The notes beneath the pieces are model-generated. The model had not been told where the DNA came from and made no database searches. It saw nothing but the letters and a program-made list of their open reading frames with translations. This document shows positions 9,884 through 44,973 of a DNA stretch of 64,000 nucleotides, piece by piece (within the stretch, counting starts at the first letter, position 1; each line of letters begins with the position of its first letter). The translations under genes were made by a program, and so were the position numbers. The DNA is from Planctomycetota bacterium (GTDB lineage Bacteria; Planctomycetota; UBA8108; UBA1146): positions 11,319-75,318 of the forward strand of contig JAYZBV010000077.1 of NCBI GenBank assembly GCA_036338595.1, in the 5' to 3' direction.

Positions 9884-9991
9884 CGAGATGCCCTCCTCTG
9901 CGTTTGACGATGACTCTGATTCAGTTTGCAAATCTCCTCCAACTCCGCTCAGCCCGACAGTCAGTATACCGAGCCACCGTGGCAAGGCAAT

Positions 9992-28383: not shown

Positions 28384-28956
28384 TCAGAGTTCCAGGAACC
28401 AGCGGTGGACCTGCGAATCAGTCGTCAATTCGGGGTGGAAGGTGCAGGCGACGCAGCGTCCTTGCCTCACGGCGACCGGTTCCTGTGCTCGTGTCGCCAG
28501 GATCTCCACATCGGCGGCGGGTCGATCGAGACGCGGTGCCCGGATGAAGACGCCCTCGCCCACTCCGGATCGAGGGCCCGAGATCCACTCGACGTCACCG
28601 ATGAAGGAATGGACCTGGCGACCATATCCATTTCGCTGCACCCCGATGTCGATCAGATTCCAGCGCCGTGGCGCTTCGCCATCGTCGCGCCCCAGCAGGA
28701 TCGCTCCGGCACAGGTGCCGAGCACTGCGAGGTCTTCAGCCACAACACGGTCGATGATCATCCTCGACAGGGAGTGGAGATGGAGCAAGTGGCTCAACGT
28801 GGTGCTCTCGCCACCCGGAATCACGAGGTGAGTGATGTCATCGAGTTGGTCGGGGCGACGCAGTTCGAACGGCTCCGCACCCGCTGCCGACAACGCACGA
28901 AGATGCGGCTCGACAGAACCCTGTAACGCCAGAACTGCTGGGCGGACCGATGGCAC
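28384..28956 (-). CDS. pdxT: Pyridoxal 5'-phosphate synthase glutaminase subunit
   Basis: VLALQG, IPGGESTT, GTCAG, RNGYGRQ..SF, FIRAP and FHPELT. Confidence 0.95.
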   Translation of the reverse strand: MPSVRPAVLALQGSVEPHLRALSAAGAEPFELRRPDQLDDITHLVIPGGESTTLSHLLHLHSLSRMIIDRVVAEDLAVLGTCAGAILLGRDDGEAPRRWNLIDIGVQRNGYGRQVHSFIGDVEWISGPRSGVGEGVFIRAPRLDRPAADVEILATRAQEPVAVRQGRCVACTFHPELTTDSQVHRWFLEL

Positions 28957-28958
28957 GG

Positions 28959-29885
28959 TTACCAGCCTCGGACCTGGAGTCGTTCATCCTCGGGAAGTTT
29001 GGTGGCATCCATTCCCTGCATCGCTTTTGGAAGTCCGCTCGAAGCCTCTGCCAGTTCGACCGCGTCATCGAAATGTGCAGTGGCATGGACGATGGCTGTA
29101 GCAGTCCGTATTGGTTCCTCGGATTTGAATATTCCAGAACCGACAAAGACTGCCTCGGCACCGAGTCGCATCACGAGGGCTGCGTCTGCGGGCGTGGCGA
29201 TCCCTCCTGCGGCGAAGTTGGGGACAGGCAGTCTGCCCTCCTTGGCGACCTGGCACACCAGCGAGTAGGGGGCGGCCAGATCCTTTGCAATGCTCATCAA
29301 TTCCTCGGGACTGGCCTGGGTGATGGCCCGAATCTGGCTGCGGATCAATCTCAGATGCCTGACCGCTTCGGTCACATCACCGGTGCCCGCCTCGCCCTTG
29401 GTACGAAGCATGGCAGCTCCTTCTGCGATGCGGCGTAGCGCCTCACCGAGATTAGTGGCTCCGCAGACAAAAGGCACCTGGAAGCGGCTCTTGTCGATGT
29501 GGTGGGCATGGTCTGCAGGGGTCAGAACTTCCGATTCGTCGATGAAATCGACTTCCAGTGCCTGCAAGATCTCGCCCTCGACGAAGTGGCCGATTCTCGC
29601 CTTGGCCATGACGGGGATCGAAACCGTTTCCTGGATCTCTCGAACCTTGTCCACAGGTGACATCCGAGCGACGCCTCCGTCTCTGCGAATGTCAGAGGGA
29701 ACCCGTTCGAGTGCCATGACGGCAACGGCTCCTGCCTCCTGTGCTGTCCTTGCCTGATCCGCAGTGGTGACATCCATGATGACGCCGCCTCGCAGCATCT
29801 CGGCGAGGCCGACCTTTGTGCGAAACTCATCATCGGACCCGTTGGCTCTCAACGGAGTGGTGGACTGATCGTTCAAGGCTTCCAT
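28959..29885 (-). CDS. pdxS: Pyridoxal 5'-phosphate synthase lyase subunit
   Basis: [50 protein letters not shown] and RGW C-terminus. Start is probably ATG 29885. Confidence 0.97.
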
Positions 29886-30350
29886 CCTCTCTCTCGATGC
29901 AAAGGGTGCGGTGCACCCCCGCAGGCGGAACCCGATATTGCCTCTTCTGCGGTGCAGATGCGAGTGGATCGAGGCCCAGAGAGGCCCTTTCCGAGCCACC
30001 GGGTAGCCGTTATTCTGATGCCAGAACTGCCGGGAATATGGCGAAGATCAGAGGTGCCTGGGAAAGACTCCGGAAATCCCGGAGAAGGGGACCGATATGA
30101 GGCAGACTCCCGGATCCAGTGGCATGTGCTGCTGGATCATCGTCGACAACTCAATTTGTTCGGGGATTCCTTGGTTGAGGTTCGACTGGCCAGGTCCTGA
30201 TGGCTGTCGATTTGCCTCGCTGGGTTCTGTACACCGAGCCAGAAGACCGAAGGAAAAACCCCGACGATGATGCCGAGTTGCTGTTATTCCGCACATGAAG
30301 TCCAGCGCGCCAGGACAGAGACGGTTCGCCTCGCCGGGCCCTCTCCCAGG

Positions 30351-31706
30351 ATGAGGACTCTGACCCTGGCTTCCCTTTCATCACTGGTATTGCTGATCGG
30401 TGGATGGGGACAGGACAATTTGCAAGCGCAGATCTTCGAGCGCGCTCTCGTGCTCGAGGGAGTCCATCTACCCGCACCGGACGGAACGGTGCAGGAAAAT
30501 GCCAACATCATCCTGAGGGGCGGTCGGATCGCCGAGATGGGGCCCGATGCGGATGCTCCAATGATGTCCCGCAAGATGAAGGTCAAGGGGCTCTTTGCCA
30601 CCGCAGGGATGACGGATCTCTTCTCTACCCTGACCCTGGATGCGGTGAGCTCGGCAAGCGCTGTTCATAGTGCATGGGATGGATTCGACCGATACGACTC
30701 GGAACGGATCATGCAGGTGCTCTCAAATGGCGTGACGAGGGTTCACCTGGTTCCGATGGGTGCCGGTGGAATCGTTGGACGTGCCTGTTCTGTTTCTCTC
30801 GGTGAAAGAGAAGGCGGCGGCCATGGGAATCTCGATGCTGAGGATGTTGCGCTCTGTATCGATCTGGATACCGGAACTCCACTGCAAAAGATCCGAACCT
30901 TTGAAAAGGTGAGATCAGCATTCCTTGCTGCGGAGCGTCGCCGCGACGCCTTCGATGATTACTCCAGTGATCTGGAGGAGTACATCAAGGAACTCTCCGA
31001 AGCCGCCAAGAAGAAGGCAGAATCAGAGGGCAAGGAAGAGAAGGGCGACGACAAGAAATCCGACGATGAGGAAGAGAAGGATAAGGAAAAGGACAAGGAT
31101 AAGGACAAGGAAGAGGAGAAGGGGCCCGAGAAACCCGGTAGACCTGAGCGCAATCCCGCCTCCGATATCCTGCTTCAGGCTCTGGACCATGAGTTGCCGG
31201 TGATGATCACTGCCCGAAGGAGCCAGGATTTGCAAAATGCCCTCGACCTGATCGAGGAGTTCGGTTTTATCGCCACGATTCAGGGAGCGGACGAGGCTCA
31301 CCTGATGCTGGAGGCACTGCAAGAGATGGATCATCTGTCGATCCTGCTCGATGTGCCGCGAACTCCGCTCGAGCGGGGCTCTGCTCCTCGTCAGGATGCT
31401 GCACTGATCTCGAGGCTCGAGGATTCGGGGATCGAATGGTCAGTGGCCAGTGGCGGCGAAAGTACATCTCTCTGGAGGTCGATCCAGATGATCGCCGGGC
31501 AAGCCGACGGAACCTCTCCACTTCAACTCGCTCTCGCTCAGGGGGCTCGAGGCCGGGGGGCTGGATGGCTTCGTCGGGGTAGTTCGGAAGTGGTTCTCTG
31601 GGACAAGAATCCGGTGCTGGATCCGCTCGCAAGACCTCAGCGTGTGATCATCGATGGTACCGTCGTCTGGCAGCGGCCGGCCGGCACCCGGGAAGGTAGT
31701 TTTTGA
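30351..31706 (+). CDS. Secreted amidohydrolase-fold protein 1 (metal ligands absent)
   Basis: Signal peptide; IILRGGRIAEMG, AGMTDLFSTL (no HxH), NGVT, acidic/Lys-rich insert, RVIIDG. ORF is open from 30267. Confidence 0.75.
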   Translation: MRTLTLASLSSLVLLIGGWGQDNLQAQIFERALVLEGVHLPAPDGTVQENANIILRGGRIAEMGPDADAPMMSRKMKVKGLFATAGMTDLFSTLTLDAVSSASAVHSAWDGFDRYDSERIMQVLSNGVTRVHLVPMGAGGIVGRACSVSLGEREGGGHGNLDAEDVALCIDLDTGTPLQKIRTFEKVRSAFLAAERRRDAFDDYSSDLEEYIKELSEAAKKKAESEGKEEKGDDKKSDDEEEKDKEKDKDKDKEEEKGPEKPGRPERNPASDILLQALDHELPVMITARRSQDLQNALDLIEEFGFIATIQGADEAHLMLEALQEMDHLSILLDVPRTPLERGSAPRQDAALISRLEDSGIEWSVASGGESTSLWRSIQMIAGQADGTSPLQLALAQGARGRGAGWLRRGSSEVVLWDKNPVLDPLARPQRVIIDGTVVWQRPAGTREGSF

Positions 31707-32860
31707 TGAGAACTCGCCTTCAACGCGGAACCCTGCTGATCAGTAGGCTTGCCATGGTCGGATTTTTACTGCTCGGCCCATTGCTGCTGGCAGCGTCGAT
31801 GGCTGATGACGGTACTTTCGTGATCTCTCCCGTCGGAGTCGTGGGCCCCGATGGAAGTATCTGTCAGCAGATGGCGGTGGTCATCGAGCCTGACGGCACC
31901 ATCGCCGCAGTCATTCCAGCGGATCAGGCAGATCCGAAACTCTCCACCTTCGCCGCCGCATCAGGGGCGGTACTCACGCCGGGCTTACACGATCTGCTCG
32001 GATCTCTGGGTGCCAGGGGTTCCCTGACAGCAGGAACGGTTCTCATCGATAATGAACTGGCTGCTGCGGATGCGTTCGACCCGACAGATCCGGAACTGGA
32101 TCGAGCAGCGAAACATGGTGTGCTCTACAGCACCATCGCTGCACTTCCCGCCGGCGTGCTCAACGGCACCACCGCCACTTTCATCTGCCGAAGCTCCATC
32201 GAAGCCACATCTGTGGCCGCCGGAAAACCATGCTTCGCACTGTCGGGAACCGTTCTCAATTCGTCACGTGAGCCGACCAGCCGCTCGGCGATGGTCTCGA
32301 TCTGGAAGGACTGGCTCAAAAGCGGCGACTCCGCACTTCAGAGCCCCGGAATTCTCTTCTGCCCCGATGCCATCGATCTGCGCCAGACGCTGTCGCTCGG
32401 GTGGAAGTCATTGCCAGTGCTGGTCCACTCCGGAGATGCGAGATCTCCCGTCGGGAGGCTCGCAGGCCGGGATGCGATGATGGTGGTGGGCCCCTTCCTC
32501 GAAGGGGGAGATCCGGCAGTGGTGTCGACCGCGATCCGGGCAGCTCGCACCGGAACGGAGCTCGCCTTCAAGGGTGCCTTCGGTGGAGGTCCTGCAGATC
32601 AACTACGAGGTAGTGCCGCGATAGCCGTGTCCGCAGGACTCGACGGCGATGCAGCCAGACGAGCACTTTTCTCCAACCCTGCCCGGGTCGCCGGTTGCAG
32701 CGGTGTGGGAGTCATCGAGCCCGGGGCTCGCGCAGATCTGGTGCTGTTCTCCACCGACCCACTCGATCCAGGAGCGAAAGTGCTTCAGGTGTGGATCGGA
32801 GGAGTCCAGATGCGCTCGGAGCCCACCGGACACATCCGGCCACTGAAAGGAATCCGATGA
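31706..32860 (+). CDS. Secreted amidohydrolase-fold protein 2 (metal ligands mostly absent)
   Basis: LTPGLHDLLGSL, NPARVAG, GVIEPGARADLVLF..DP and VWIGG; TGATG overlap with gene 1. Confidence 0.78.
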   Translation: MRTRLQRGTLLISRLAMVGFLLLGPLLLAASMADDGTFVISPVGVVGPDGSICQQMAVVIEPDGTIAAVIPADQADPKLSTFAAASGAVLTPGLHDLLGSLGARGSLTAGTVLIDNELAAADAFDPTDPELDRAAKHGVLYSTIAALPAGVLNGTTATFICRSSIEATSVAAGKPCFALSGTVLNSSREPTSRSAMVSIWKDWLKSGDSALQSPGILFCPDAIDLRQTLSLGWKSLPVLVHSGDARSPVGRLAGRDAMMVVGPFLEGGDPAVVSTAIRAARTGTELAFKGAFGGGPADQLRGSAAIAVSAGLDGDAARRALFSNPARVAGCSGVGVIEPGARADLVLFSTDPLDPGAKVLQVWIGGVQMRSEPTGHIRPLKGIR

Positions 32861-34437
32861 AGAAGCAAACCCCGACGAGACAGCCCTCTGGATTCTTCAT
32901 TCCAACTTCGATGGCATGGCTGCTGGCTGTGGTGCTGACCGTGTCGCTGGCTCCTGCAACGAGCGCCGCGGTTGTGGCGGGAGATGCCGAGAAATCGGAA
33001 GTGGAACTGGTCAAGGATGTGACCATCCGTGCAGAGCGTGCGCATATCGGAGATGGACAGATCGTCGAGGACGCTCTGATCGTCATCAAGGATGGCATCA
33101 TCCAGAGTATCGTCAGCGGTGGTGAGGCCGAGTCGGAGGAAAATGTACTGGTCGTCTCTGACATCACACCTGGACTGATCGACGCCAACGCCAGGATCGA
33201 TGTCGCCGATGCGCTTTATTTCCCGGGAGAGGACCCCAGGCTGCAGATTCTCCGGGTGATGGGTCTGGAAGAACATTTCCACGGCGGGGATGTCTGTCCC
33301 TGTGGCACGGTTTGCCCCGCCATGACTTCCCATATCGCCGACGAGATGTGCCTTTACTGCGGTTGGCCCGATCACGACCCTCACCCTCATGATCCAGGCG
33401 ATGAAATCGCTGCGGATGCAATTGCGGGTGATCGAGCGGCTGGAGTGCCCGCTCCCAGTGGAGTCGTCAATGAACAATCGAGTGAGGTCGTGCCTCACTT
33501 CGAGGTGCTCGATGCGATCGATCAGGGGTCGGATGATTTCGACCGATTACTCGAAGAGGGAGTGACGACCATCTATGTCAGCCCCGACTCCTCGGCGGTG
33601 ATTGGAGGCAGGGGGTCCCTGATGAAGACAGGTGGACCCATTGGAGCCAGATACCTGGGAGCCGGTGCGGTCAAGGGTGTCCTTGGAAGCGATGCCTATC
33701 GATACGGTTCGCGTAACCGCAGCCCATTTCGCACGCTGGTCTCCGTCTACACCAGACGCCCCGATTCCCGGATGGGAGTGACATGGGTGTTTCGCAAGGC
33801 GTTCCACGATGCGTTCCTGCGCGCCAGTGGTGTGCAACCCAGCGGCGCGGATACATCCAGTCCCAGTGCCTCGAGAGTGCTCTCGCAGGTTCTCGCGGGC
33901 GAGGTGCCACTGCGGATCCAGGCTCGTACAGCGCCTGATATAGAAACTGCTTTCAGACTGTGCGACGAATTCGGCCTGGATTTTGTACTCGAGGATCCTG
34001 TCGAGGCGTGGAAGCGAGTCGACCTGCTCTCGGAGAGTGGCGTCGATGTCGTGTTCGGGCCGGTTTTTGATGTTCCGAGCGGAATTCTGGCAGGCACCAG
34101 TGAGAGCAGGGGTGCACGTCTGCACACGCTACGTGATCTGGTTTCATCCGGAGTTTCCGTGTCGCTGAGCGCTCAGGACCTCAGAGGTGAGGAGGGGCTC
34201 TCCCGTCAGGTGATGCTGGCGATCCGACATGGAGTCGATCCTGCGATGGCCTTGAAACTGGTGACGCAAAATCCAGCCCGGTTGCTCGGGATCGATGCCC
34301 AGGTGGGAACCATCGAAGCTGGAAAAAGAGCTGACCTGGTCATCTGGAGTGGCACACCCTTCTCCTCTCTGTCACAGATAGAAAAGGTCTACCACGAAGG
34401 TGTGATCTCTTTCATCCGAGGCGGAGCCAATAAATGA
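32857..34437 (+). CDS. Secreted amidohydrolase-fold protein 3 with a Cys/His-rich insert (metal ligands absent)
   Basis: ITPGLIDANARI, EGVTT, NPARLLG and GTIEAGKRADLVIW; ATGA overlap. Confidence 0.8.
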   Translation: MKKQTPTRQPSGFFIPTSMAWLLAVVLTVSLAPATSAAVVAGDAEKSEVELVKDVTIRAERAHIGDGQIVEDALIVIKDGIIQSIVSGGEAESEENVLVVSDITPGLIDANARIDVADALYFPGEDPRLQILRVMGLEEHFHGGDVCPCGTVCPAMTSHIADEMCLYCGWPDHDPHPHDPGDEIAADAIAGDRAAGVPAPSGVVNEQSSEVVPHFEVLDAIDQGSDDFDRLLEEGVTTIYVSPDSSAVIGGRGSLMKTGGPIGARYLGAGAVKGVLGSDAYRYGSRNRSPFRTLVSVYTRRPDSRMGVTWVFRKAFHDAFLRASGVQPSGADTSSPSASRVLSQVLAGEVPLRIQARTAPDIETAFRLCDEFGLDFVLEDPVEAWKRVDLLSESGVDVVFGPVFDVPSGILAGTSESRGARLHTLRDLVSSGVSVSLSAQDLRGEEGLSRQVMLAIRHGVDPAMALKLVTQNPARLLGIDAQVGTIEAGKRADLVIWSGTPFSSLSQIEKVYHEGVISFIRGGANK

Positions 34438-36065
34438 AATCGAGAGTCCCCGGAGGCGAGGAGCCGATGTTTTCGATGAACTTCAATAATTTACGCCCAC
34501 TACCATGGGTCATCGTCACGGTGTTGTTCCTGATGACAACACCGATGGCGCAGGCGAATGGAAACAAGGTTGCTTTCACAGGAGGGACGGTGTTGACCGT
34601 CTCCGGACCTGTCATCGAGGGGGGAGTGATCCTCGTTGAAGACGGCATCATCACTGCAGTCGGCGAAGGGGACACGGAGATTCCCTACGATGCGATGGAA
34701 GTCGACTGCACCGGCATGATCCTGGCTCCTGGATTTGTCGACCCTCACAGTGCGGATGGCCTCGACATTCCCAATGAGAACCTTCCGAAGGCGCCATTTG
34801 TCGACGTCTTCGATGCCATCGATCCATCCAGGTTCTTCTTCGAGGATTCGCTTCGAAATGGTGTCACGACGATTCACGTCATGCAGGGCAACAACTGCGT
34901 TGTCGGTGGTGTCAGTCGCATCGTGCATCCGATCGGACTCTCTCCACATGAGATGTCACGCCAGGCTGGTGTGGCCATGAAACTCTCGACATCTCCTCGA
35001 CAGGGTTACGATCGATTGAGGCAACTCGCAGAGTTGCGCGAGGTGTTCTCGGAATACGACCGCTGGAGAGAGAATCTTGCAGAGAAGCGATTCGAGCAGG
35101 AGGCGAAAAAAGACGACGATCTGGAGCCCTTGCCCCCCGAGGAGGCGCGCCAGAAGGGGGAGGAGTTGATCCGTGATGAAGATCTGGATGATCAGCACCG
35201 CAATCTCGCCCACCTCGTCGATGGACGTCTGGGAGCGTGGATATATTGTGGATCGGCCTCGGATGTGGCTCCTGCGCTGGCCCTCATCTCCGATAGAGGG
35301 TGGCAGAAGAACTCGGTGCTGGTGCTGGGAGGAGATGCCCACCTGGCGGTGAGCGAGATCGATGACTCCAACCTTGCCGTGATCCTCGATGCGGATCTGG
35401 TGTACAGAAAAAGGGACCCCATCCACGGCGAACTGATCGAGACCTTCATCCCGGATATCTACCGCGGTGCAGGGGTGAAATTTGCCATCCAGCCTTCCAG
35501 GACCGGATCGATGCCGGAGAGATTCCTCGGCTACCAGGCAGCTCGCCTGGTCCGCTCGGGAGTGTCTCCAGAAGATGCGTTGCGCATCGTCACTCTCGGT
35601 GCTGCGGAGATCTGTGGCGTCGCGGATCGCTATGGATCGATCGAGGTCGGCAAGGTCGGCAATCTTGTGATGTGGACCGGTGACCCCCTCGATCTGACAT
35701 CCTGGGTCCAGAAGGTCTGGGTCGAGGGCATCCTCGCCTATGATCGTGAAAAGGATGCCAGGCTGGAGAGGCTCTTCCCGGAAGCTGCCGAGGAACCGGA
35801 ACCTCCCGCTCCCCTCGATGATGCCGAAACCTCTGAAGAGGATGGAGATGGCGACTCCGCTGCAGAAGACGGGGATCAGCCGAAGGGTGACGAGGCCGCT
35901 GATCCTCAGCCCTTGAAGGAAAAGTCGACCGAGAAGGACAAGAAAGAGGCTCCCGACAAGAAGCCCGTCCCTCCGGACGACAAGCCGGATGACAAGCCGG
36001 ACGACAAGCCGGACGACAAGCCGGACGACAAGCCGGACGACAAGCCGACGGTCGGAGAGGTCTAG
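34434..36065 (+). CDS. Secreted amidohydrolase-fold protein 4 with an acidic repetitive tail
   Basis: LAPGFVDPHSAD (one His), NGVTT and GSIEVGKVGNLVMWTGDP; ATGA overlap; alternative start at 34467. Confidence 0.8.
   Translation: MKSRVPGGEEPMFSMNFNNLRPLPWVIVTVLFLMTTPMAQANGNKVAFTGGTVLTVSGPVIEGGVILVEDGIITAVGEGDTEIPYDAMEVDCTGMILAPGFVDPHSADGLDIPNENLPKAPFVDVFDAIDPSRFFFEDSLRNGVTTIHVMQGNNCVVGGVSRIVHPIGLSPHEMSRQAGVAMKLSTSPRQGYDRLRQLAELREVFSEYDRWRENLAEKRFEQEAKKDDDLEPLPPEEARQKGEELIRDEDLDDQHRNLAHLVDGRLGAWIYCGSASDVAPALALISDRGWQKNSVLVLGGDAHLAVSEIDDSNLAVILDADLVYRKRDPIHGELIETFIPDIYRGAGVKFAIQPSRTGSMPERFLGYQAARLVRSGVSPEDALRIVTLGAAEICGVADRYGSIEVGKVGNLVMWTGDPLDLTSWVQKVWVEGILAYDREKDARLERLFPEAAEEPEPPAPLDDAETSEEDGDGDSAAEDGDQPKGDEAADPQPLKEKSTEKDKKEAPDKKPVPPDDKPDDKPDDKPDDKPDDKPDDKPTVGEV
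35973..36044 (+). repeat. 12-bp coding tandem repeat (CCGGA[C/T]GACAAG) x6 encoding (PDDK)6
   Basis: Six consecutive units read directly from the sequence. Confidence 0.95.
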
Positions 36066-36066
36066 A

Positions 36067-38799
36067 ATGCGATTTCCGCTGATCCTGATCGGGATCCTGA
36101 CACTGTCATGCGCCCAGCCGGCGGGTGCGCAGAGCGCAGGGGATGACTTCGTGCTCCGTGCAGGTACCGTCCACACGGGGATTCGAGAGATTCCCGATGG
36201 AGCGATCGTGGTCCGCGATGGCAAGGTGGTCGCATCCGCCGCATGGTCGGAACTGCAGGACGATGCCAGTCTCGATCAACTTCCGCTGGTCCACTGGCCC
36301 GATGCCTATGTCACTCCCGGTCTCGTTGCCGCAGCGAGTGGATTGGTCCCTGCGCACTCATCGCCTGAGAGCATCTCCGCTGCTTTCAGAGCCTCGGATG
36401 GGTTCGATCGTTACGGCGACTACCGCCCGCTGTTGAAGACCGGGGTCACCACCGTCCACCTGAGTCCGGGAGAACATCGCCTCGTCAGCGGCCAGGGTGC
36501 TGTGGTCAAACTGGTCGGGGACGCCGACGACCGGATCATCAAATCGAGCTCTGATCTCTCCCTTTCGCTCACCGACGATGTGGATGGTCCGGGTGCTCTT
36601 CTCAAGATTCCATTTCCAGCCTCCAGCGATGTGGCGATCACTGCGCCGGTTCCACAGCGGCCTCGAAGTCGCATCGGCCGTCTGTTGGCTCTCGGTGAGG
36701 CGATCGAGAAATCGACCGAGGATGCTGCAGCCCACGGCGAACTGGCCCAGGCCTGGCAATCGGGATTGCCCCTGAGAGTGGCCGCTCGCAGAGCACCGGA
36801 GATCCTCGCAGCGATCTCCTTCATCCGCGGCAAGGGACGAGAAGGATACATCGTGGGGGGAACAGAGATCGCCGAAGTCTCTCCAGCGCTGGCTGCTGCG
36901 GGAATCCCTCTGGTCCTTCGCATCCAGCTGGTCGGTGGAGATGTGGGATTTTCAGCGAGGGAGCCGATCGAGGGCCTGACCCACTGGCCCGATCTGGGAA
37001 GCGAAGGACTGCTGGCTCTTGCTCCTCCCGATAACGATCTGGCGCTGCTGCGATGGGCGCTGGTGGAAGCAGCCTCACACATGAAGAACCCCGGGGATTC
37101 CATCGCACTGGTGACACACAATGCCGCTCGCATCCTCGGAGTCGAGGATCGTGTGGGAAGTCTGCAAGCGGGTGCAGATGCGGACATCGTGGTCTGGAAC
37201 GAAGCACCGTGGAACATCAGTGCGCACCCACTTGAAGTGGTTGCCGGGGGCAGGAGCGCCTGGCAGCCGCAGGACAGTTCCGCAACGGTGATTCGCGCCG
37301 AAACGATCTGGCTCTCCCCCGAGGTTGCGATCGCTGATGGCGAGATCCTCCTCGAGGATGGAAAGATCGCATCGGTGGGTCGAAGAGTTCCGCACCCTCC
37401 CCATTCAAAGGTGGTCGATGCGGGGCCGGGCAGTTTTGTCGTTCCTGGTTTCATCGACAGTTTCGGTCATCTCGGATTGCGAGGTGATTCTGGAGCTGCG
37501 GGTACAGGGGATCGCCTTTACAGACTGATCGGATCCGCGGATGAACCGGAACACCGGGTAGCGCGTGCGGGTGTAACTTCACAGTTGCTGACTCCGAAGC
37601 GGTTGCAGCGTGGTGCTGCCACTGCAGTGATGGTCAAAACTGCGGGCCGGAGCAGAGCAGATCGTGTTGCCCGGCCAGTGTCTGCGTTGCTGCTGGAAGC
37701 GAGTGGCCATCCGGATGAAGCTCTCGGTGGAATCACGCGATTGCTCGGGCAGGGCCAGAAATACCTCGATTCCTGGAAGAAGTACGAAAAGGAACTTGCA
37801 GAGTGGGAAGAAAAGAAGGCCGCGGGTGAAACGATCGAAGCCAAGGAAGAGGTAGAGGAAGAGGTGGTGGAAGAAGGGGGGCCGGACCCACTCACCGGGA
37901 TCTGGGAATTGACCATCTCTGGCGGCCCACTTCCTGATGCCGAGACGGTTTCGATTTCGATTCAACTCGAAGGAGACAAGTTCGAGGGTCGAATCGTGGA
38001 GCCTATTCCTCCCATTCCGGTGCGGGTGGTGGGAACCCTCTCCGGGACCACCATCGAAGCGACCATCGAGATCGAAGATGGAGTGATTCCAGATACTCCC
38101 AAGATCGAAGCAGAACTGACCGGAGAAGACGCCCTGTCGGGAACCATCTCGGTGATGCAATTCTCTGCGGATGTAATGGGTACTCGCACCAGCAAGGAAG
38201 CCAAGACTTTCAAGGTGGAGCGGCGCAAGAAACGAGACGATGACGGTCGTCCCAATCCGCCAAAGGTCAATCTGGCGATGGAGCCGGTCCGAGATGTACT
38301 CGAGAAGAAAATTCCAGTGGTGGTGACTCCCAGCGGTCTGGAAGTCGCAGCAAAGGTCATCGAGTTCTTCTCGAAAAAGAAGATCCCCTTGACCCTCAGG
38401 CTCGGTCCCGAGATGCGACACTACGGTGATCTTCTGTCGAAAGAATCGGTTTCGGTGATTCTTCCGAAGCAGGTGTCCTATACCGTCAATAGAGAAGAAT
38501 TCGTCCCCGCTACCTTTCTCAGTCGCGCAGGAATCAATGTGGCCTTCCAGAGTCAGGCTTCCGATGGAGCGCGTGCCCTACCCCAGCAGGCTTTGCAGGC
38601 GGTAGAGAGGGGCATGGGAGCCGACGATGCTTTGTATGCACTGACCCGAGGAGCCGCTGAAGCGCTGGGAGCTCAAGATCGAGTCGGATCGATCGAGAAG
38701 GGCCTCGACGCAGACCTGTTGATCTGGAATGGACATCCCCTCGAGGCGGGTAGCACTCTGCAGAGGGTATTCATCGATGGAGAGGAGGTCCCGAGATGA
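36067..38799 (+). CDS. Secreted protein 5 with two tandem amidohydrolase-fold domains (both degenerate)
   Basis: Domain 1: VTPGLVAAASGL...TGVTT...GSLQAGADADIVVW. Domain 2: VVPGFIDSFGHL...AGVTS...GSIEKGLDADLLIW. Signal peptide from ATG 36067. Confidence 0.8.
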   Translation: MRFPLILIGILTLSCAQPAGAQSAGDDFVLRAGTVHTGIREIPDGAIVVRDGKVVASAAWSELQDDASLDQLPLVHWPDAYVTPGLVAAASGLVPAHSSPESISAAFRASDGFDRYGDYRPLLKTGVTTVHLSPGEHRLVSGQGAVVKLVGDADDRIIKSSSDLSLSLTDDVDGPGALLKIPFPASSDVAITAPVPQRPRSRIGRLLALGEAIEKSTEDAAAHGELAQAWQSGLPLRVAARRAPEILAAISFIRGKGREGYIVGGTEIAEVSPALAAAGIPLVLRIQLVGGDVGFSAREPIEGLTHWPDLGSEGLLALAPPDNDLALLRWALVEAASHMKNPGDSIALVTHNAARILGVEDRVGSLQAGADADIVVWNEAPWNISAHPLEVVAGGRSAWQPQDSSATVIRAETIWLSPEVAIADGEILLEDGKIASVGRRVPHPPHSKVVDAGPGSFVVPGFIDSFGHLGLRGDSGAAGTGDRLYRLIGSADEPEHRVARAGVTSQLLTPKRLQRGAATAVMVKTAGRSRADRVARPVSALLLEASGHPDEALGGITRLLGQGQKYLDSWKKYEKELAEWEEKKAAGETIEAKEEVEEEVVEEGGPDPLTGIWELTISGGPLPDAETVSISIQLEGDKFEGRIVEPIPPIPVRVVGTLSGTTIEATIEIEDGVIPDTPKIEAELTGEDALSGTISVMQFSADVMGTRTSKEAKTFKVERRKKRDDDGRPNPPKVNLAMEPVRDVLEKKIPVVVTPSGLEVAAKVIEFFSKKKIPLTLRLGPEMRHYGDLLSKESVSVILPKQVSYTVNREEFVPATFLSRAGINVAFQSQASDGARALPQQALQAVERGMGADDALYALTRGAAEALGAQDRVGSIEKGLDADLLIWNGHPLEAGSTLQRVFIDGEEVPR

Positions 38800-40034
38800 G
38801 GAAACTGACGCTGTTTCTCGTCGCTTTTCTGACGCTGGTCAGTTTCGCCGATGATGTTGCTGCCGCCGATGTCACGGTCTTTCGAGTCGGCAAGATCATC
38901 ACCATGGATGATGATGACCGGGTCATCAACAACGCTGTCGTGGTGGTTGTCGATGGGAAGATCACATCGTTAGGTCGATCACGAGATATCGAGATCCCCG
39001 ACGGAGCAGAGGTCATCGACCGGCCACAACTATGGTTGGTCCCGGGAATGGTCGAGTGCCACAACCACACCGGAGGGTCCAGCCCTGACCTTCACGATTA
39101 CATCTACCTGACCAATCCTGGCCTGCGAACCCTCGAGTCCGTGGTCCCTGACGGTAAGGAGATGGAACGTGCCAGGGCCGGAGGAGTCACCACCGTGCTG
39201 ACGATTCCGGGCAGCGGCAATAACATGTCTGGCTTCGGCACCATCTTGAAGACAGCAGGCACCGGCACGGTCAAGGAAGCTGTACTGAAGGCTCCTGGAT
39301 CGTTGAAGATCGCCCAGGCAGGGAACCCTGAGCGATACTTTTACGGTGTGGGTCGATCCTTCATGAACTTCAATACACGCCAGACCCTGCGCAAGGCGAG
39401 AGACTACCACCTCGCTCGAACGGCGTGGGAAGAGGGGAAACTGGCTGCTGAACCTCCGAAGGATCTTCACTGGGAGGAGTTCCGACCGCTCTTTCGCAGA
39501 GAGACGGTCGCATCGGTGCACACCCAGATTTTCCAGGTGCTGATGACCACCGTGAAGATGGTCGCAGGAGAGTTCGGAATTCGTACCGTGCTCGACCACT
39601 CCACCTTTGACGCCTGGAAGGTGGCGAGGCTGGTCAATGAAGACGAGAGCATCTACACCATCAACGGGCCGCGTCAGATTCACTATGACCGTACTCAACG
39701 TCGGATCATGGGGAATGCTGGGCGCTGGTGGCAGGGAGGCGTGCGACGACTGGGGATCAATACCGACTCTCCGGTGATCCCCCAGGAGGAGTTGTTCTAT
39801 CAGGCAGCGATGGCTTGCTACTACGGCTGGACTCCCTACGAGGCTCTCAAGGGGGTGACACGGATTCCTGCAGAAGCACTGATGATGGACCACCGACTCG
39901 GCAGTATCACGGTAGGCCTGGACGCGGATTTCTGCCTCTGGACAGGCGACCCGATCGATCCTCGTTCATCGTGCGAACTGACCATCATCGATGGCAAGGT
40001 GACCTACGACGCCAGCGGAAAGCGGGTCTTCTGA
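38796..40034 (+). CDS. Secreted amidohydrolase 6 with an intact metal-binding site
   Basis: LVPGMVECHNH (HxH), LKIAQAGNP (Lys), ASVHTQ, VLDHST, GINTDSP (Asp) and GSITVGLDADF; signal peptide. Confidence 0.88.
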   Translation: MRKLTLFLVAFLTLVSFADDVAAADVTVFRVGKIITMDDDDRVINNAVVVVVDGKITSLGRSRDIEIPDGAEVIDRPQLWLVPGMVECHNHTGGSSPDLHDYIYLTNPGLRTLESVVPDGKEMERARAGGVTTVLTIPGSGNNMSGFGTILKTAGTGTVKEAVLKAPGSLKIAQAGNPERYFYGVGRSFMNFNTRQTLRKARDYHLARTAWEEGKLAAEPPKDLHWEEFRPLFRRETVASVHTQIFQVLMTTVKMVAGEFGIRTVLDHSTFDAWKVARLVNEDESIYTINGPRQIHYDRTQRRIMGNAGRWWQGGVRRLGINTDSPVIPQEELFYQAAMACYYGWTPYEALKGVTRIPAEALMMDHRLGSITVGLDADFCLWTGDPIDPRSSCELTIIDGKVTYDASGKRVF

Positions 40035-41374
40035 TGGGTGGTCGAACTCAACTCCTCCCGAGGTGGGCAAGCTGTTTGATGGTGTTGCTGGTTGCACTGC
40101 CAACTCTACCAGCGCAGGCGACTGACGATGCGGATCGTGTCACGGTGATTCGAGCCTCGCGTGTCATCACAGGCACCGGAGAGATCCTTGAACCAGGCGA
40201 AGTTGTTTTCGAGGACGGCAAGATCTCATTGGTTGGAAATCAACTGGAGTATCCCAAGAATGCCAGGATCATCGATGCCCGGGGGCAGACGCTGATGGCA
40301 GGGATGATCCTCGCGCGCTCCAGGCATGGTCTCAGCAATCTTTCGCGAAATGGGATCCATTGTGATTGGTCGCCGTTGCGACAGCTGAATGATCAGGAGA
40401 TGCCCTGGGCTGAATTTCTGGAAGCCGGCATTGTTGCCGCTTCGCTGGTTCCTGCTGGCTCAGGATTTCCAGGACATGCAGTGGTGGTCAACACAGCGCC
40501 CGAGAGTACTGACCGAATCCTCAATGAATCCGCCTTCTTGCCCCTCAATGGAAGAACATCATCTGGACTATACGCCTCGATCGACAAGGCGTTTGGTGGT
40601 GCGAGAGGTGAGATAGAGAAGGTCGAGAAGGCAAGAGAGCAGTGGGACAAGGAACAAGAAGAGGCGAAGAAGAAGGCTGAAGAAGAATCCGGGAAGAAGG
40701 ATGGGGAAGCGGCCGAGGAGAAAAAGAAGGATGGGGAAGCCAAGGATGACAAACCCAAGGAGTTCACCCCACCCGAGATGAATCCTTCGGTCGTCGAACT
40801 GGTCAAGATTCTTCAGGAAAAAGATGACGCTCTTCCGATCGTATTTGATGCGAGCACGCCTGGATTGATCCTTCACTTCGATGCTGCCATGGCAGATGTG
40901 AAGGAATTGAAGGACCGCGACCCGTTGGGGATCTTCATCCTGCCCGGCACTCGAAATGGTGCCTTCCATCAGGTGGTGGAGATGCTCGCCGAACGAAAGG
41001 CCACGGTGTTGATTCCGCCTGGTCTCAGTGCTCTTCCCGATACCTACACGAGGATTTCGATTCCCGTGGCGCTGTCTCGTGCCGGTTGCACTCTGGTGAC
41101 GATACCGCGCACAGACAATCCTGAGGGGATGAGGAACATCCCTGGCATGCTGGCAGAGCTGGTTCGATATGGTCTCAGCCGCGAGGCCGCACTGGCCTCG
41201 GTCACTACCGAGCCCGCCCGGTTGCTTGGACTTGGAGATCGTATGGGAACCGTCGAGGCAGGTAAGGAGCCGCACTTCGTACTCTTCGATGCCGACCCCC
41301 TGGAGCCGGGGGCAAGGGTGATGAAGACCATCATCGCAGGCGAGGTGGTCTGGGATCGAGAGGACAACCGATGA
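40034..41374 (+). CDS. Secreted amidohydrolase-fold protein 7 (metal ligands absent)
   Basis: VVFEDGKI, LMAGMILARSRH, EPARLLG and GTVEAGKEPHFVLF; charged insert; TGATG overlap. Confidence 0.78.
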   Translation: MGGRTQLLPRWASCLMVLLVALPTLPAQATDDADRVTVIRASRVITGTGEILEPGEVVFEDGKISLVGNQLEYPKNARIIDARGQTLMAGMILARSRHGLSNLSRNGIHCDWSPLRQLNDQEMPWAEFLEAGIVAASLVPAGSGFPGHAVVVNTAPESTDRILNESAFLPLNGRTSSGLYASIDKAFGGARGEIEKVEKAREQWDKEQEEAKKKAEEESGKKDGEAAEEKKKDGEAKDDKPKEFTPPEMNPSVVELVKILQEKDDALPIVFDASTPGLILHFDAAMADVKELKDRDPLGIFILPGTRNGAFHQVVEMLAERKATVLIPPGLSALPDTYTRISIPVALSRAGCTLVTIPRTDNPEGMRNIPGMLAELVRYGLSREAALASVTTEPARLLGLGDRMGTVEAGKEPHFVLFDADPLEPGARVMKTIIAGEVVWDREDNR

Positions 41375-42765
41375 GCACGAAAATGAGAGCCTCTCTGGTG
41401 ATGCTGGCGGTCTTCTTCATGGTGACCGACATTCCGATCAACTTCGGACATCGAGTCCAGATGGCCGGAATCTCGGAGGCACAGGACCCGCCACGCCGTC
41501 GCCGGCGTGGGCGCCGACCACCGCCCCCTGCGCCAGCACCTGAACCGGAGAAAGAGGAGACGGAGCCAGAGGATCCCGGTGGCGAGTACCTTGCCATCGT
41601 GGGTGCCACCATCCACACCATCACGGGGCCAGTGATTCGCGGCGGAACCGTGTTGTGCAAGGATGGGAAGATCATCTCCATCGGGGAAGACATCGTGGCG
41701 CCCTCGGATGCTGAAAAGATCGACGCTACCGGACACCATCTCTATCCGGGCCTTGTCGCCTTTCGGTCCAGTGGCCTTGTCGGCTCAGGGGAGCCGGAAA
41801 AGACCCAGGATCCGTTTGCGCTCGGCACGGTGATGGGGCTGGCAGCAGGAATCACCTCGACGTGGAACGGCAGCCGTGTCTGTAAGTTGATTCGAGGCGA
41901 AGTCAGCGACCTGACGCTTCGAAACAAGGCCTTCACCTCGATCAGCTATAACAGCAGGAACCCATCCGGGAAACGCGAACTTCGCGAAGCGCTCGAGAAA
42001 GTCCAGGAACACCTCAGGGAACTGGAACGGCACGAGAGTGACAAGAAGGAAAACCCGGATGCGAAAGCTCCCGACGAGAAGTGGATTCGTGGCCTTTTCT
42101 CTACAGCACGCAATTTGCTGACCGGCAAGAGTATTGCACTGACCCGGGCCTCGACCATCTACGATCTACGTGAGGTTTGTGAGCTGGCCAGGCGGTTTGA
42201 ATTCGAGATGGTCATCGAGGGAGCTGAAGAGGCATGGATCGAACCCGGAGTGCTGGCGCGCTGCAGGGCATCCGTGGTGTTGACTCCTCGTAGTCGCCGA
42301 GACCGGGATGAGAGCCGTGGGGCTGCAGGGGGATCCAGCATCGAGAATGCCAGGATCCTGTACGAGCATGGAGTGCCCGTGACCATCATGCCGGGCAGTC
42401 GAGGAATCGCCTTGTGGGGTCTCGCAGGCCGGGATCTGTCGCACCTACCCCTGGAAGCGGCATTTGCCGTCAGAGGTGGATTGTCTGAGGATGTGGCGGT
42501 GCAGTCGATCACCATCGAACCCGCACGTCTGCTCGGAGTGGCGGATCGAATCGGGTCGATCGAGGTGGGAAAGGATGCCGACTTCATCATCATGGATGGC
42601 GACCTCCTCTCGTACATGTCTCATGTACGGTGGGCTGTCATCGACGGCAAGATCCAGTACGACAAGGCTGAAGAAGGCCTTCTGGATCACATACGCCCCG
42701 CCGGTGAAGATGAACCCAAGCCTCCCGAAGACCACTGGCCGCGTCGACTCGGAGATCCTCTCTAG
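41371..42765 (+). CDS. Amidohydrolase-fold protein 8, probably exported (metal ligands absent)
   Basis: VLCKDGKI, LYPGLVAFRSSG, AGITS, EPARLLG and GSIEVGKDADF; Arg/Pro-rich N-terminal linker; ATGA overlap. Confidence 0.8.
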   Translation: MSTKMRASLVMLAVFFMVTDIPINFGHRVQMAGISEAQDPPRRRRRGRRPPPPAPAPEPEKEETEPEDPGGEYLAIVGATIHTITGPVIRGGTVLCKDGKIISIGEDIVAPSDAEKIDATGHHLYPGLVAFRSSGLVGSGEPEKTQDPFALGTVMGLAAGITSTWNGSRVCKLIRGEVSDLTLRNKAFTSISYNSRNPSGKRELREALEKVQEHLRELERHESDKKENPDAKAPDEKWIRGLFSTARNLLTGKSIALTRASTIYDLREVCELARRFEFEMVIEGAEEAWIEPGVLARCRASVVLTPRSRRDRDESRGAAGGSSIENARILYEHGVPVTIMPGSRGIALWGLAGRDLSHLPLEAAFAVRGGLSEDVAVQSITIEPARLLGVADRIGSIEVGKDADFIIMDGDLLSYMSHVRWAVIDGKIQYDKAEEGLLDHIRPAGEDEPKPPEDHWPRRLGDPL

Positions 42766-42854: not shown

Positions 42855-42915
42855 GGTAGAACCTTTTCTCCTGCTGTCACGGGAGGAATTTTCCCTCGTC
42901 TCGAAGGACAGTTCG

Positions 42916-44973
42916 ATGCCATCCATCCCCAGCCGATTGCCACTGGTGAACCTCCGCATGGGGGCCCTGGTGGCACTGCTATTACTGGCTGGTTTTGCCC
43001 CGGTTCAGGGCCAATGTGCCACCGGAGAGATCGAGTTGTTTGGCGTCAGTGCAGGGGATGGTCTTGGCCGATCAGTGGCCATTTCGGGTGGGCGAACCTT
43101 CATCGGAGCCGTAGGTGATGATGATGGTGGGCTGCTCAGCGGCAGCGTGCGAATTTTCCAGCGAAATTTGAGTGGCTATCAACTCGAAGAAGTATTGGTC
43201 GGACAGGCGGGTAGCCAGCTCGGCTCCTGCCTCGCGGCAGACGGCAAACTTCTGGCGGCAGGTGCCTCGGGTGCCGGGGCGGTAGAGATGTGGCGTAGAG
43301 ATCGCCTCCAGTGGACCCAGATTCAGGTACTCAGTGACCCGCAGGGTCAACCAGGAGACGGTTTCGGCACCTCACTGTCACTGCACGGCGACCTGCTGGC
43401 TGCAGGAAGCCCCTATTTCGAGACCGCCCAGGGTCAGGTCGGCTGTGTCACTCTCTGGAGATTCGACTCCGCGGTGGGGTGGGAGTTGCAGGAGAGATTG
43501 CTCGCTACCGATCGTGTTTCTGGGGATCAGTTCGGTACGGCGGTTTCGCTCGCGGATGGATCCCGCTTGCTGATCGGTGCGCCAGGTAGAGATTTTCTCG
43601 GATCCGATACCGGTTCAGCGTACCTGTTCACCGGTGGAACTGACGGTTGGGTCGAGGAGTTTGACATCGGCACCGGGGCTTCTGCACCTGGTGATCGGCT
43701 GGGAACCTCGGTCGCCATCTCGGGACAGCATCTGCTGCTGGGGTCGCCATATTCGGACATCGCGGGTCCTGATGCGGGAGCGGTCGTCAACTATCAACGG
43801 GTCGGAGACATCTGGGTTCTCGGATCTCATCTGGTCCCACCTTCTGGTGCCAGTGGGTGTGCATTCGGAGCGGTTCTCGATCTCGATGGGAACCTGTTGA
43901 CGGTGGGGGCTCCCACCGATACCGGTGGCGAAGCGTTTCCAGCCGGCTCCGTCTCCGTCTATCGCTGGCAGGGAAACTGGCAACTGGTGGAATCGCTGAC
44001 AGGAAACTCCAGTTCCTTCCTCGGTAGTTCGATAGCCGTGCATCGTGGCGTTGTGATCTCGGGTGCTCCCTTCGATTCTACTCTGGCACCTGTTGGCGGA
44101 AACGCCGTACTGGTGGTTCATGGAGATGAGGATTGCGATCTCGACGGGGAGCCGGATTCATGCTCGATAGCCTCAGGGCTGGTCGAGGATTGCGATCTGG
44201 ACGGTGTCATAGATAGTTGCGGGATCTCGCAGGGACTGTCGATCGACTGTGATGGAGATGGCATCCCGGATTCCTGCGCAACGCTGGAGGGCACCGTTGC
44301 CGATTGCGATGGGGATGGAGTTCCCGATATTTGCGCCATCGATTCAGGCCTTGTCACCGATTGCGATGGCGACGAGATCCCCGATGTCTGCCAGGTGGAT
44401 TGCAATCAGAACCTGATCCCGGACGCGTGCGAGATCAGCCAGGATGGATTCCTCGATTGCGACAGTGATGGCTTGCTCGATATCTGCGAACTTGAGACGG
44501 GAAGTGAACCCGATTGCGATGCCAACGGAATCATCGACAGTTGCGACCCCGATTGCAACGGCGACGGAACACCCGATGAGTGCGAGTTCCTCGAAGGAAT
44601 GGCGGAAGATTGCAACAGCAATCACATTCCAGACGAGTGTGACCTTGCAGAAGCGAACAATGACACCAACTCGAACGGTCTGCTGGACTCCTGTGAAGCT
44701 GGTTTCATTCGTGGTGAGGCAGATGGGGTTGAAGGAGTTGGAATCTCCGATGCGATGCTACTGATCGCAAGGGTATTCGGCGATGTTGCGATTCCCGATT
44801 GCCCGGAGGCCGCAGATGCAAATGCGGATGGTTTGCTGGACATCTCTGATGGACTGTATCTGCTCTACTATCTTTTCATGGGCCAGCCCGCACCCGTCTC
44901 TCCCTTTCCGGAATGCGGGATCCTACCTGTTGATGCGGTATTCAACTGTGAGATGCATCCGTCTTGTCCCTAG
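42916..44973 (+). CDS. Secreted FG-GAP repeat beta-propeller protein with Cys/Asp-rich repeats and a C-terminal dockerin-like module
   Basis: Repeats of (F/L)G.SVAIS...GAP...G; about ten DC(D/N)xDGxPDxC units; C-terminus FIRGEADG...DANADGLLDISD...CG. Confidence 0.8.
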   Translation: MPSIPSRLPLVNLRMGALVALLLLAGFAPVQGQCATGEIELFGVSAGDGLGRSVAISGGRTFIGAVGDDDGGLLSGSVRIFQRNLSGYQLEEVLVGQAGSQLGSCLAADGKLLAAGASGAGAVEMWRRDRLQWTQIQVLSDPQGQPGDGFGTSLSLHGDLLAAGSPYFETAQGQVGCVTLWRFDSAVGWELQERLLATDRVSGDQFGTAVSLADGSRLLIGAPGRDFLGSDTGSAYLFTGGTDGWVEEFDIGTGASAPGDRLGTSVAISGQHLLLGSPYSDIAGPDAGAVVNYQRVGDIWVLGSHLVPPSGASGCAFGAVLDLDGNLLTVGAPTDTGGEAFPAGSVSVYRWQGNWQLVESLTGNSSSFLGSSIAVHRGVVISGAPFDSTLAPVGGNAVLVVHGDEDCDLDGEPDSCSIASGLVEDCDLDGVIDSCGISQGLSIDCDGDGIPDSCATLEGTVADCDGDGVPDICAIDSGLVTDCDGDEIPDVCQVDCNQNLIPDACEISQDGFLDCDSDGLLDICELETGSEPDCDANGIIDSCDPDCNGDGTPDECEFLEGMAEDCNSNHIPDECDLAEANNDTNSNGLLDSCEAGFIRGEADGVEGVGISDAMLLIARVFGDVAIPDCPEAADANADGLLDISDGLYLLYYLFMGQPAPVSPFPECGILPVDAVFNCEMHPSCP

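Follow-up and report, generated by a model that had tools for sequence, protein, structure and literature searches.

Why would a planctomycete keep eight neighbouring genes of a single enzyme superfamily, apparently all for export, in one tightly packed operon? The original prediction for this locus, which lies in a 64,000-nucleotide window (the whole stretch of DNA analysed), was that eight translationally coupled same-strand genes with nine domains of amidohydrolase pattern encode the parts of one heteromeric particle. An ORF check found eight intact plus-strand ORFs at 30351-42765, a 12.4-kb operon with a protein set of ~4,000 residues. The junctions are those predicted: at six of them start and stop codons overlap (ATGA or TGATG), and at the other a 1-nt gap separates the genes. 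Within the window the array is free of other gene types. ORF start codons are inferred, with Met12 as an alternative start in gene 4. The features are as follows.

Gene 1, 30351..31706, + strand: predicted exported amidohydrolase-fold domain without H-x-H; fast-evolving; joined to gene 2 (and gene 3) in some lineages.
Gene 2, 31706..32860, + strand: predicted exported domain; metal ligands absent here.
Gene 3, 32857..34437, + strand: predicted exported domain without H-x-H; Cys/His-rich insertion in this lineage.
Gene 4, 34434..36065, + strand: predicted exported domain; partial metal site; acidic low-complexity tail.
Gene 5, 36067..38799, + strand: natural two-domain fusion, 5N and 5C; full site in neither domain.
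Domain 5C, within 36067..38799, + strand: bears a long helix and an eight-strand beta insertion.
Gene 6, 38796..40034, + strand: full binuclear site, H89, H91, K171, H242, H268 and D324.
Gene 7, 40034..41374, + strand: predicted exported domain without H-x-H; joined to gene 8 in one locus (L142).
Gene 8, 41371..42765, + strand: predicted exported domain without H-x-H; strongly conserved; co-occurs with gene 6 across the phylum sample.
Terminator-like hairpin, 42865..42888, + strand: 100 nt past gene 8; possible operon end.

The region holds 11 terminator-like sites against 7.6 ± 2.4 in shuffled sequence, which lends the hairpin little weight; a promoter scan of the region stayed at chance level, and Rfam gave no match within the window. 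Across 105 loci no neighbouring gene is conserved, the largest neighbour family occurring in 9, and the array thus behaves as a self-contained cassette. Four sequencing runs searched at 80% likeness gave little: the RNA runs matched only over short low-complexity stretches, and one further run, of unspecified kind, yielded partial contigs.

All nine domains belong to the amidohydrolase superfamily, combining a (beta/alpha)8 barrel with a beta-sandwich composite domain. Pfam Amidohydro_1/3 models matched seven of the eight genes, gene 2 among them below the Pfam cut-off, and gave no match for gene 1, whose C-terminal motifs are degenerate. Profile-profile alignment to gene 6 (hhalign) nonetheless returned a probability of 100 for all eight other domains, gene 1 included. 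Local pairwise identities among the paralogs are roughly 22-45%, which together with the orthology by position described below rules out recent tandem amplification, again as predicted.

The six ligands of the binuclear metal site (H-x-H, Lys, His, His, Asp), as defined in the available text of PMC11511702, are retained in the window by gene 6 only, and H-x-H is absent from all eight other domains. The idea that every gene encodes an enzyme sits poorly with the lack of the canonical metal site in eight of the nine domains of this genome; the singular status of gene 6 had gone unremarked. All six ligands are invariant in 270 of 270 gene 6 sequences. Gene 6 also has a C-terminal aromatic residue, usually as R-x-F. 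From its sequence, gene 6 fits an IadA-type binuclear amidohydrolase site with a predicted carbamylated lysine. Across loci, H-x-H is found at position 1 in 1/122, 3 in 1/133, 4 in 0/140, 5N in 0/150, 7 in 0/174 and 8 in 0/156 sequences. Of 128 unique loci, domain 2 has it in 18 and carries all six ligands in 5, in deep lineages, the only full set outside gene 6 in the loci compared; 5C keeps H-x-H in 33 of 163. A single active subunit is therefore not universal. Gene 4 has mostly lost the second, third and fourth histidines but often keeps the first His (83%) and the Lys (88%). Purifying selection acts on all nine domains, the eight site-less ones included, as judged from dN/dS values of 0.01-0.28 in five genome pairs, and these values rule out pseudogene decay.

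Gene order is conserved. Complete arrays in the same order were found in 111 of 197 unique loci. Among the best 80 of 416 matches in the genome collection no locus changed the order of its visible domains (0/80), and phylum and metagenome loci likewise kept it. In an all-against-all BLAST of domains from 36 loci, 331 of 333 domains found their best match in another locus at their own array position; the count was 321 of the 333 once matches were restricted to loci with gene 6 less than 50% identical. In a 220-domain tree, positions 3, 4, 5N, 6 and 8 are fully monophyletic, with gene 4 as the sister of gene 6; positions 1 and 2 are not cleanly separated there (19/23 and 13/24), while best matches assign them correctly in 34/34 and 36/36 cases. 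The expectation of one clade per position is thus upheld in the tree for those five positions. Overall, the array positions behave as orthologue groups kept in a constant order.

Free variation in copy number, which would have spoken against the predicted complex, is likewise not seen: gene 6 is the sole amidohydrolase position at which it varies, from one to four. Exactly two copies are present in 27 of 153 loci, the product of an old duplication and of several independent ones. Four copies are present in two loci, and two genomes with the array carry an orphan gene 6 as well. A gene of the gene 6 clade was found in 78 of 301 sampled Planctomycetota genomes, about a quarter; gene 8 accompanies it in 72 of the 78 and occurs in 1 of the 223 lacking gene 6. 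One array (L182) lacks gene 8, which is located elsewhere in the same genome, and in one locus (L224) a WD40 gene sits between 5C and gene 6. Taxonomy among the best 80-120 matches listed was Planctomycetota throughout, except for one same-genus genome labelled 'Bacillota'.

Each separately encoded chain is a predicted Sec-exported protein with an n/h/c signal peptide. Using an in-house hydrophobicity heuristic rather than SignalP, we detected signal-peptide-like segments in 75/79, 76/83, 78/84 and 80/90 orthologues of genes 1-4 and in 87/91, 118/120, 99/100 and 98/100 of 5N and genes 6, 7 and 8, or 89-99% per gene, in line with the predicted leader on every gene. The internal domain 5C, taken as a control, scored in 5/100. 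Tat and lipobox motifs are nearly absent among array orthologues.

Natural fusions and the AlphaFold model of gene 5 support contacts between paralogues. Positions 1-2-3 are fused in L045-47 and 15 database proteins, 1-2 in L048, L147, L153, L154 and L242, 5N-5C in essentially all loci, and 7-8 in L142; no fusion of gene 6 to another domain was seen in the loci examined. Apparent 4-5 (L034) and 3-4 (L050) fusions were dismissed as N-gap or frameshift assembly artefacts, and a 5N/5C split in L207, where the break falls inside 5C, looks like an error. The AlphaFold model of gene 5 reached a pTM of 0.83 against a rough ceiling of 0.59 for unpacked domains, with 5N packed against 5C, and its best Foldseek match was 3OOQ (E 8e-21, TM 0.70 by target). 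The natural 1-2-3 fusion, modelled from an alignment of 30 natural fusions of which 10 came from an unrelated triplet system, gave a pTM of 0.68, close to our rough estimate for a packed pair of domains (0.63) and well short of that for three (0.82), and this model therefore does not support assembly beyond dimers. Complex prediction for genes 6 and 7, with scores of 0.00 in two runs whose controls were not folded, counts neither for nor against contact. Inter-domain covariation (MI-APC, 92 loci, Neff 66) raised no domain pair above noise.

The closest sequence match of gene 6 is 3OOQ, a PDB entry for an uncharacterised amidohydrolase from Thermotoga maritima MSB8 (E 3e-41 in single-sequence and 3e-73 in profile search) with the same H-x-H/K/H/H/D arrangement. 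Scores of 144 bits against 57 for the next entries (single) and 250 against 81 (profile) place gene 6 in a 3OOQ-like subfamily. 3OOQ is one sequence deposited as ten chains, in contrast to the nine or ten different, mostly site-less and predicted exported paralogues of the array. The fold and six-ligand site are also shared with IadA, Cc2672, the Sgx9260b/c prolidases, PmAcy and ochratoxinase (M38/COG1228), which the available text of PMC11511702 describes as octamers or dodecamers. These relatives are homo-oligomers in which every subunit is active. The analogy between eight chains and an octamer is accordingly weak: ochratoxinase and IadA comprise eight identical active subunits, the array nine and often ten different domains with one active type here, and 3OOQ was deposited with ten chains. 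Gene 6 alone yields weak local matches to the M38/COG1228 relatives (E 1e-14 or worse), and every listed match to NCBIfam enzyme families (HutI, Xaa-Pro dipeptidase, NagA, PhnM and others) fell under its cut-off, the best at 72 bits against 500. Matches so weak and so far below cut-off do not allow a substrate to be transferred to gene 6.

Inactive relatives of amidohydrolases can serve as structural parts: in P. aeruginosa ATCase an inactive amidohydrolase-fold chain, a pseudo-dihydroorotase, is a required subunit of the dodecamer, according to the available text of PMC7053772. That cytoplasmic complex pairs one pseudoenzyme type with an enzyme of another fold, whereas the array would set eight different pseudoenzymes beside an enzyme of their own fold. 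The 20S proteasome, CCT chaperonin, RNA exosome and CRMP hetero-tetramers are homo-oligomers turned into fixed-position heteromers with inactive subunits. They offer an analogy and not membership, being eukaryotic, cytosolic, not operon-encoded and, except for CRMP, unrelated in fold; CRMP chains appeared as weak matches in the gene 6 profile search. Nearer kin are two- and three-domain 3OOQ-like sets of the same family (C109 and C86 in this genome, and fused triplets under Gemmataceae/Isosphaeraceae names), also exported, which mix intact and site-less domains but have only two or three, and whose active members lie outside the gene 6 clade. The literature searched contained no study of these sets. 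Nor did it, with sparse coverage of subscription journals and main texts rather than supplements, contain a description of the present system; in the accessible portions of two 2026 preprints on metallo-bile-salt hydrolases (PMC13081902, PMC13081988), the enzymes are 3ICJ-like and do not correspond to this array.

We consider it probable (roughly 0.65) that the products of the operon form a single exported heteromeric hydrolase, built from eight non-catalytic domains together with the catalytic product of gene 6. We infer the complex and its substrate, rather than having observed either, from evidence that is genomic or predicted throughout. This reading is favoured by the fixed order and orthology of the positions, by the export signals and purifying selection, by the presence here of one complete site, by the near all-or-none pairing of genes 6 and 8 and by the fusions. 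Such a heteromer would derive from a 3OOQ-like homo-oligomer through serial duplication; its chains would be co-translated and exported by Sec, to the periplasm or outside the cell. The eight site-less domains would occupy fixed, non-interchangeable positions, paired for example as 1:2, 5N:5C and 7:8, and contribute to assembly, stability and substrate gating or capture. The gene 6 product would take the remaining position or positions and use two metals, bridged by the carbamylated lysine, to hydrolyse an amide or peptide bond. A small peptide or N-acyl amino acid is the most likely substrate, at about even odds, going by weak homology only. Of the predicted co-assembly, then, fixed order, orthologue groups, fusions and gene 5 packing bear out a part, and a single particle with all chains would go beyond them. 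Counting against such a particle are the variable copy number and orphans of gene 6, which would also fit an independent enzyme, the lack of an observed gene 6 fusion, the 1-2-3 pTM, the ligands kept by domains 2 and 5C in some loci, the WD40 insertion and the unseparated positions 1 and 2.

The same operon might instead co-regulate several small heteromers, dimers or triplets of 1:2(:3), 5N:5C and 7:8, alongside a gene 6 homo-oligomer. The family is common as active-inactive pairs and inactive-active-inactive triplets, elsewhere in this genome and as fusions, and confident packing is confined to the two-domain level; yet the majority of these sub-complexes would lack a catalytic site, and it would go unexplained why all eight site-less domains stay side by side in a constant order throughout the phylum sample, so we regard this arrangement as unlikely. 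We give somewhat less credence to the site-less domains being binding or structural proteins, such as periplasmic ligand binders or a surface or filament scaffold, with gene 6 a separate homo-oligomeric enzyme. Their own conserved polar residues would suit such a role, as would a gene 6 that is unfused in the loci seen, copy-variable and sometimes orphaned. However, the neighbourhood offers no conserved gene for a transporter, receptor or anchor, lipoboxes are nearly absent, and gene 6 lies inside the array at junctions that are coupled in most loci (5C-6 overlapping in 90/109 loci, 6-7 in 44/111). Least credible is an exported battery of enzymes that differ in substrate and each rely on a non-canonical site. 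Gene 4 (His1 in 29/30, Lys in 30/30 and Asp in 20/30 of one subset) and the occasional full site of domain 2 speak for it, but ligand positions in domains 1, 3, 5N, 7 and 8 are variable with no invariant substitute set, and the member gain and loss that a battery would lead one to expect is not seen.

Within the single-heteromer reading, a more specific and distinctly tentative model is a decamer with pseudo-D5 symmetry made up of five dimers, (1:2)(3:4)(5N:5C)(6:6')(7:8), as an exported bacterial counterpart to the proteasome/CCT pattern. The eight non-catalytic domains would build a cage or gate that is fixed and asymmetric, leaving two slots for exchangeable catalytic subunits. This would explain the 1-2, 5N-5C and 7-8 fusions and the apparent lack of gene 6 fusions, the loci with exactly two gene 6 copies, and the ten chains of 3OOQ, if chains as deposited reflect the biological assembly. 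An 8+4 dodecamer is an alternative, because two loci have four gene 6 copies.

Textbook eukaryotic machines include homo-oligomers whose subunits have diverged into many paralogues, each fixed in place and most of them inactive. If the heteromer proposed here is real, the array would be a clean natural model for the origin of such complexity that is bacterial, exported and operon-encoded, with eight non-catalytic domains, and its lineages would preserve intermediate states in the extra live sites of domain 2, the one to four catalytic genes and the fusions. For the uncultured planctomycetes that carry it, the operon points to an extracytoplasmic hydrolytic function.

The eight genes read from the window lie where the note placed them and are all intact, and the coupling described for them is exact, six junctions being start/stop overlaps and the seventh a 1-nt gap. 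They encode nine amidohydrolase-fold domains, as originally counted, two of which (5N and 5C) lie within g5. The array and its neighbours are as follows.

26636-28273 (-): divergent gene resembling ketoacyl synthases, stand-alone and carrying a long insertion; lies downstream of the pdxS/pdxT-like genes
28384-29999: pdxS/pdxT-like genes, diverging from the array
30351-42765 (+): array of eight exported amidohydrolase-fold genes, g1-g8
42916-44973: exported protein with FG-GAP repeats, then repeats rich in Cys and Asp and, at the C terminus, a domain that is dockerin-like by eye; downstream of the array in 6/105 loci, if it equals a 736-aa downstream family

Pfam amidohydrolase models match seven of the eight genes, the exception being g1, and hhalign against g6 returned a probability of 100 for every other domain; none of the listed NCBIfam families matched the array proteins at its own cut-off. 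The nearest solved structure is that of an uncharacterised amidohydrolase from Thermotoga maritima MSB8, 3OOQ, with ten chains in the deposit. Signal-peptide-like starts, also noted originally, were recovered with a hydrophobicity heuristic (not SignalP) as Sec-type segments in 89-99% of orthologues of each separately encoded chain, and in 5/100 sequences of internal domain 5C as a control. A lineage-specific Cys/His-rich insertion in g3 (residues about 125-190; gene at 32857-34437) could bind metal. In domain 5C, a long helix and a beta insertion of eight strands (g5 residues about 550-710; gene at 36067-38799) are modelled with good confidence; this segment is apparently missing from deep lineages, whose g5 measures about 810-870 aa.

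Four sources supplied the loci: 20 relatives' regions, the best 80 of 416 matches in a genome collection, a phylum sample of 301 genomes that gave 60 regions (six of which served as outgroup or orphan controls), and metagenomes, with 78 loci of which all but the 24 shortest were displayed. De-duplication left 197, of which 111 are complete; contig ends cut most others. Slots were assigned by position relative to g6, with HMM labels as an independent check. Label and slot agreed in all 111 complete arrays for g3, 5N, g6 and g8, and in 110 for g2, 109 for g7, 105 for g4, 103 for g1 and 92 for 5C. Across 36 loci, the best match occupied the same position for 331/333 domains, or 321/333 when restricted to distant loci. 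In a phylogeny of 220 domains from 24 loci, per-position clades were whole for positions 3, 4, 5N, 6 and 8 and held 22/24 and 23/24 members for 5C and 7, but were not resolved for positions 1 and 2. Junction overlaps recur in 36-90 of 97-111 loci, depending on the junction, and the most widespread flanking gene family is present in 9/105 loci. The only interrupted array seen has a WD40 beta-propeller gene between g5 and g6 (locus L224, 8961-9926); in another locus, L182, g8 lies outside the array, elsewhere in the same genome. Named hosts among the best 80 of 416 matches include Phycisphaerae, Pirellulaceae, Planctomycetales and unclassified Planctomycetota. One record titled 'Bacillota bacterium' (L051) is identical to a same-genus genome, G004, and is probably mislabelled. 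Within the phylum sample, 78/301 genomes hold a g6-clade gene, and g8 occurs in 72 of these 78 versus 1/223 of the remainder; those mismatches checked were contig ends or partial genes.

Among the nine array domains, only g6 aligns with H-x-H, the first two of six binuclear metal ligands. Its ligands (H89, H91, K171, H242, H268 and D324) agree with the site given for isoaspartyl dipeptidase (PMC11511702), and are invariant in 270/270 g6 sequences, metagenome rows not de-duplicated. Elsewhere, H-x-H occurs per unique locus in 1/122 g1, 18/128 g2, 1/133 g3, 0/140 g4, 0/150 5N, 33/163 5C, 0/174 g7 and 0/156 g8 sequences; g4 retains a half site. All six ligands outside g6 were found only in domain 2, at 5/128 unique loci with a one-column tolerance. 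Six deep loci (L142, L179, L242, L243, L253 and L255) have five or six ligands in domain 2 and a single g6 each. These counts limit the description 'one active subunit' to the window genome and most relatives; additional live sites were probably present in the ancestral array. The site-less domains show no decay, with dN/dS values of 0.01-0.28 across domains in five genome pairs; g6 has the lowest value in four pairs.

Where both neighbours are visible (153 loci), g6 is present once in 122, twice in 27, three times in 2 and four times in 2, counts biased by a metagenome query favouring deep lineages, which commonly have two. Phylogeny groups 15 last-in-array copies as an old second g6 clade, moderately supported (SH-aLRT 80), and indicates independent duplication in at least three further lineages. 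An aromatic C-terminal residue marks 141/163 g6 sequences and is a feature of no other position. Two orphan g6-clade genes (L185, G284:C6; L186, G133:C64) reside in genomes that also hold a full array, in each case with g6 present twice; they are possibly exchangeable catalytic subunits. Beyond the window, the same genome has further 3OOQ-like genes on contigs C109 (about 9,960-12,560), C86 (1-3,817) and C89; these include an active gene paired with an inactive one, and an inactive-active fusion that precedes an inactive gene. The protein collection also contains fused inactive-active-inactive triplets, and a mixture of live and dead members seems to be general across the subfamily.

Genuine fusions join 1-2-3, 1-2 (at least two lineages), 5N-5C and 7-8; two further apparent fusions were artefacts. 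AlphaFold with a naturally paired alignment modelled g5 at pLDDT 93 and pTM 0.83, exceeding a rough ceiling of 0.59 estimated for unpacked domains. For the 1-2-3 fusion, cut to 1,200 residues and folded from 30 alignment rows, pTM was 0.68, which fits two packed domains, the third not being established.

We place the probability that the array products form one particle at roughly 0.65. Fixed order, position-specific orthologues, fusions and the g5 packing model favour the co-assembly originally proposed, and the 1-2-3 model does not support assembly beyond dimers; that the products instead form several small heteromers is unlikely. Coupled translation in conserved order is as expected for complex subunits (PMC4742563), although export may weaken this argument. 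It is improbable that the site-less domains act as separate binding or structural proteins, and very improbable that the paralogues are non-canonical enzymes. The eight site-less domains, being selected, ligand-free and rarely lost, are best explained as structural subunits. An inactive amidohydrolase-fold scaffold, pseudo-dihydroorotase, offers a precedent (PMC7053772). The fusions, together with the pattern of g6 copies and the ten-chain deposit of 3OOQ, tentatively suggest a bolder form of the one-particle reading, five dimers arranged as (1:2)(3:4)(5N:5C)(6:6')(7:8), which we consider doubtful.

Heteromers of paralogues that include dead subunits are already known, as in the proteasome, CCT, the exosome and CRMP. 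A literature search, with subscription journals mostly outside its coverage, found no description of the array, and we assign it to no described system. The most economical reading is that a 3OOQ-like homo-oligomer diversified into a fixed-position heteromer, in which the eight ligand-free domains would be structural subunits and g6 may hydrolyse an amide or peptide bond.
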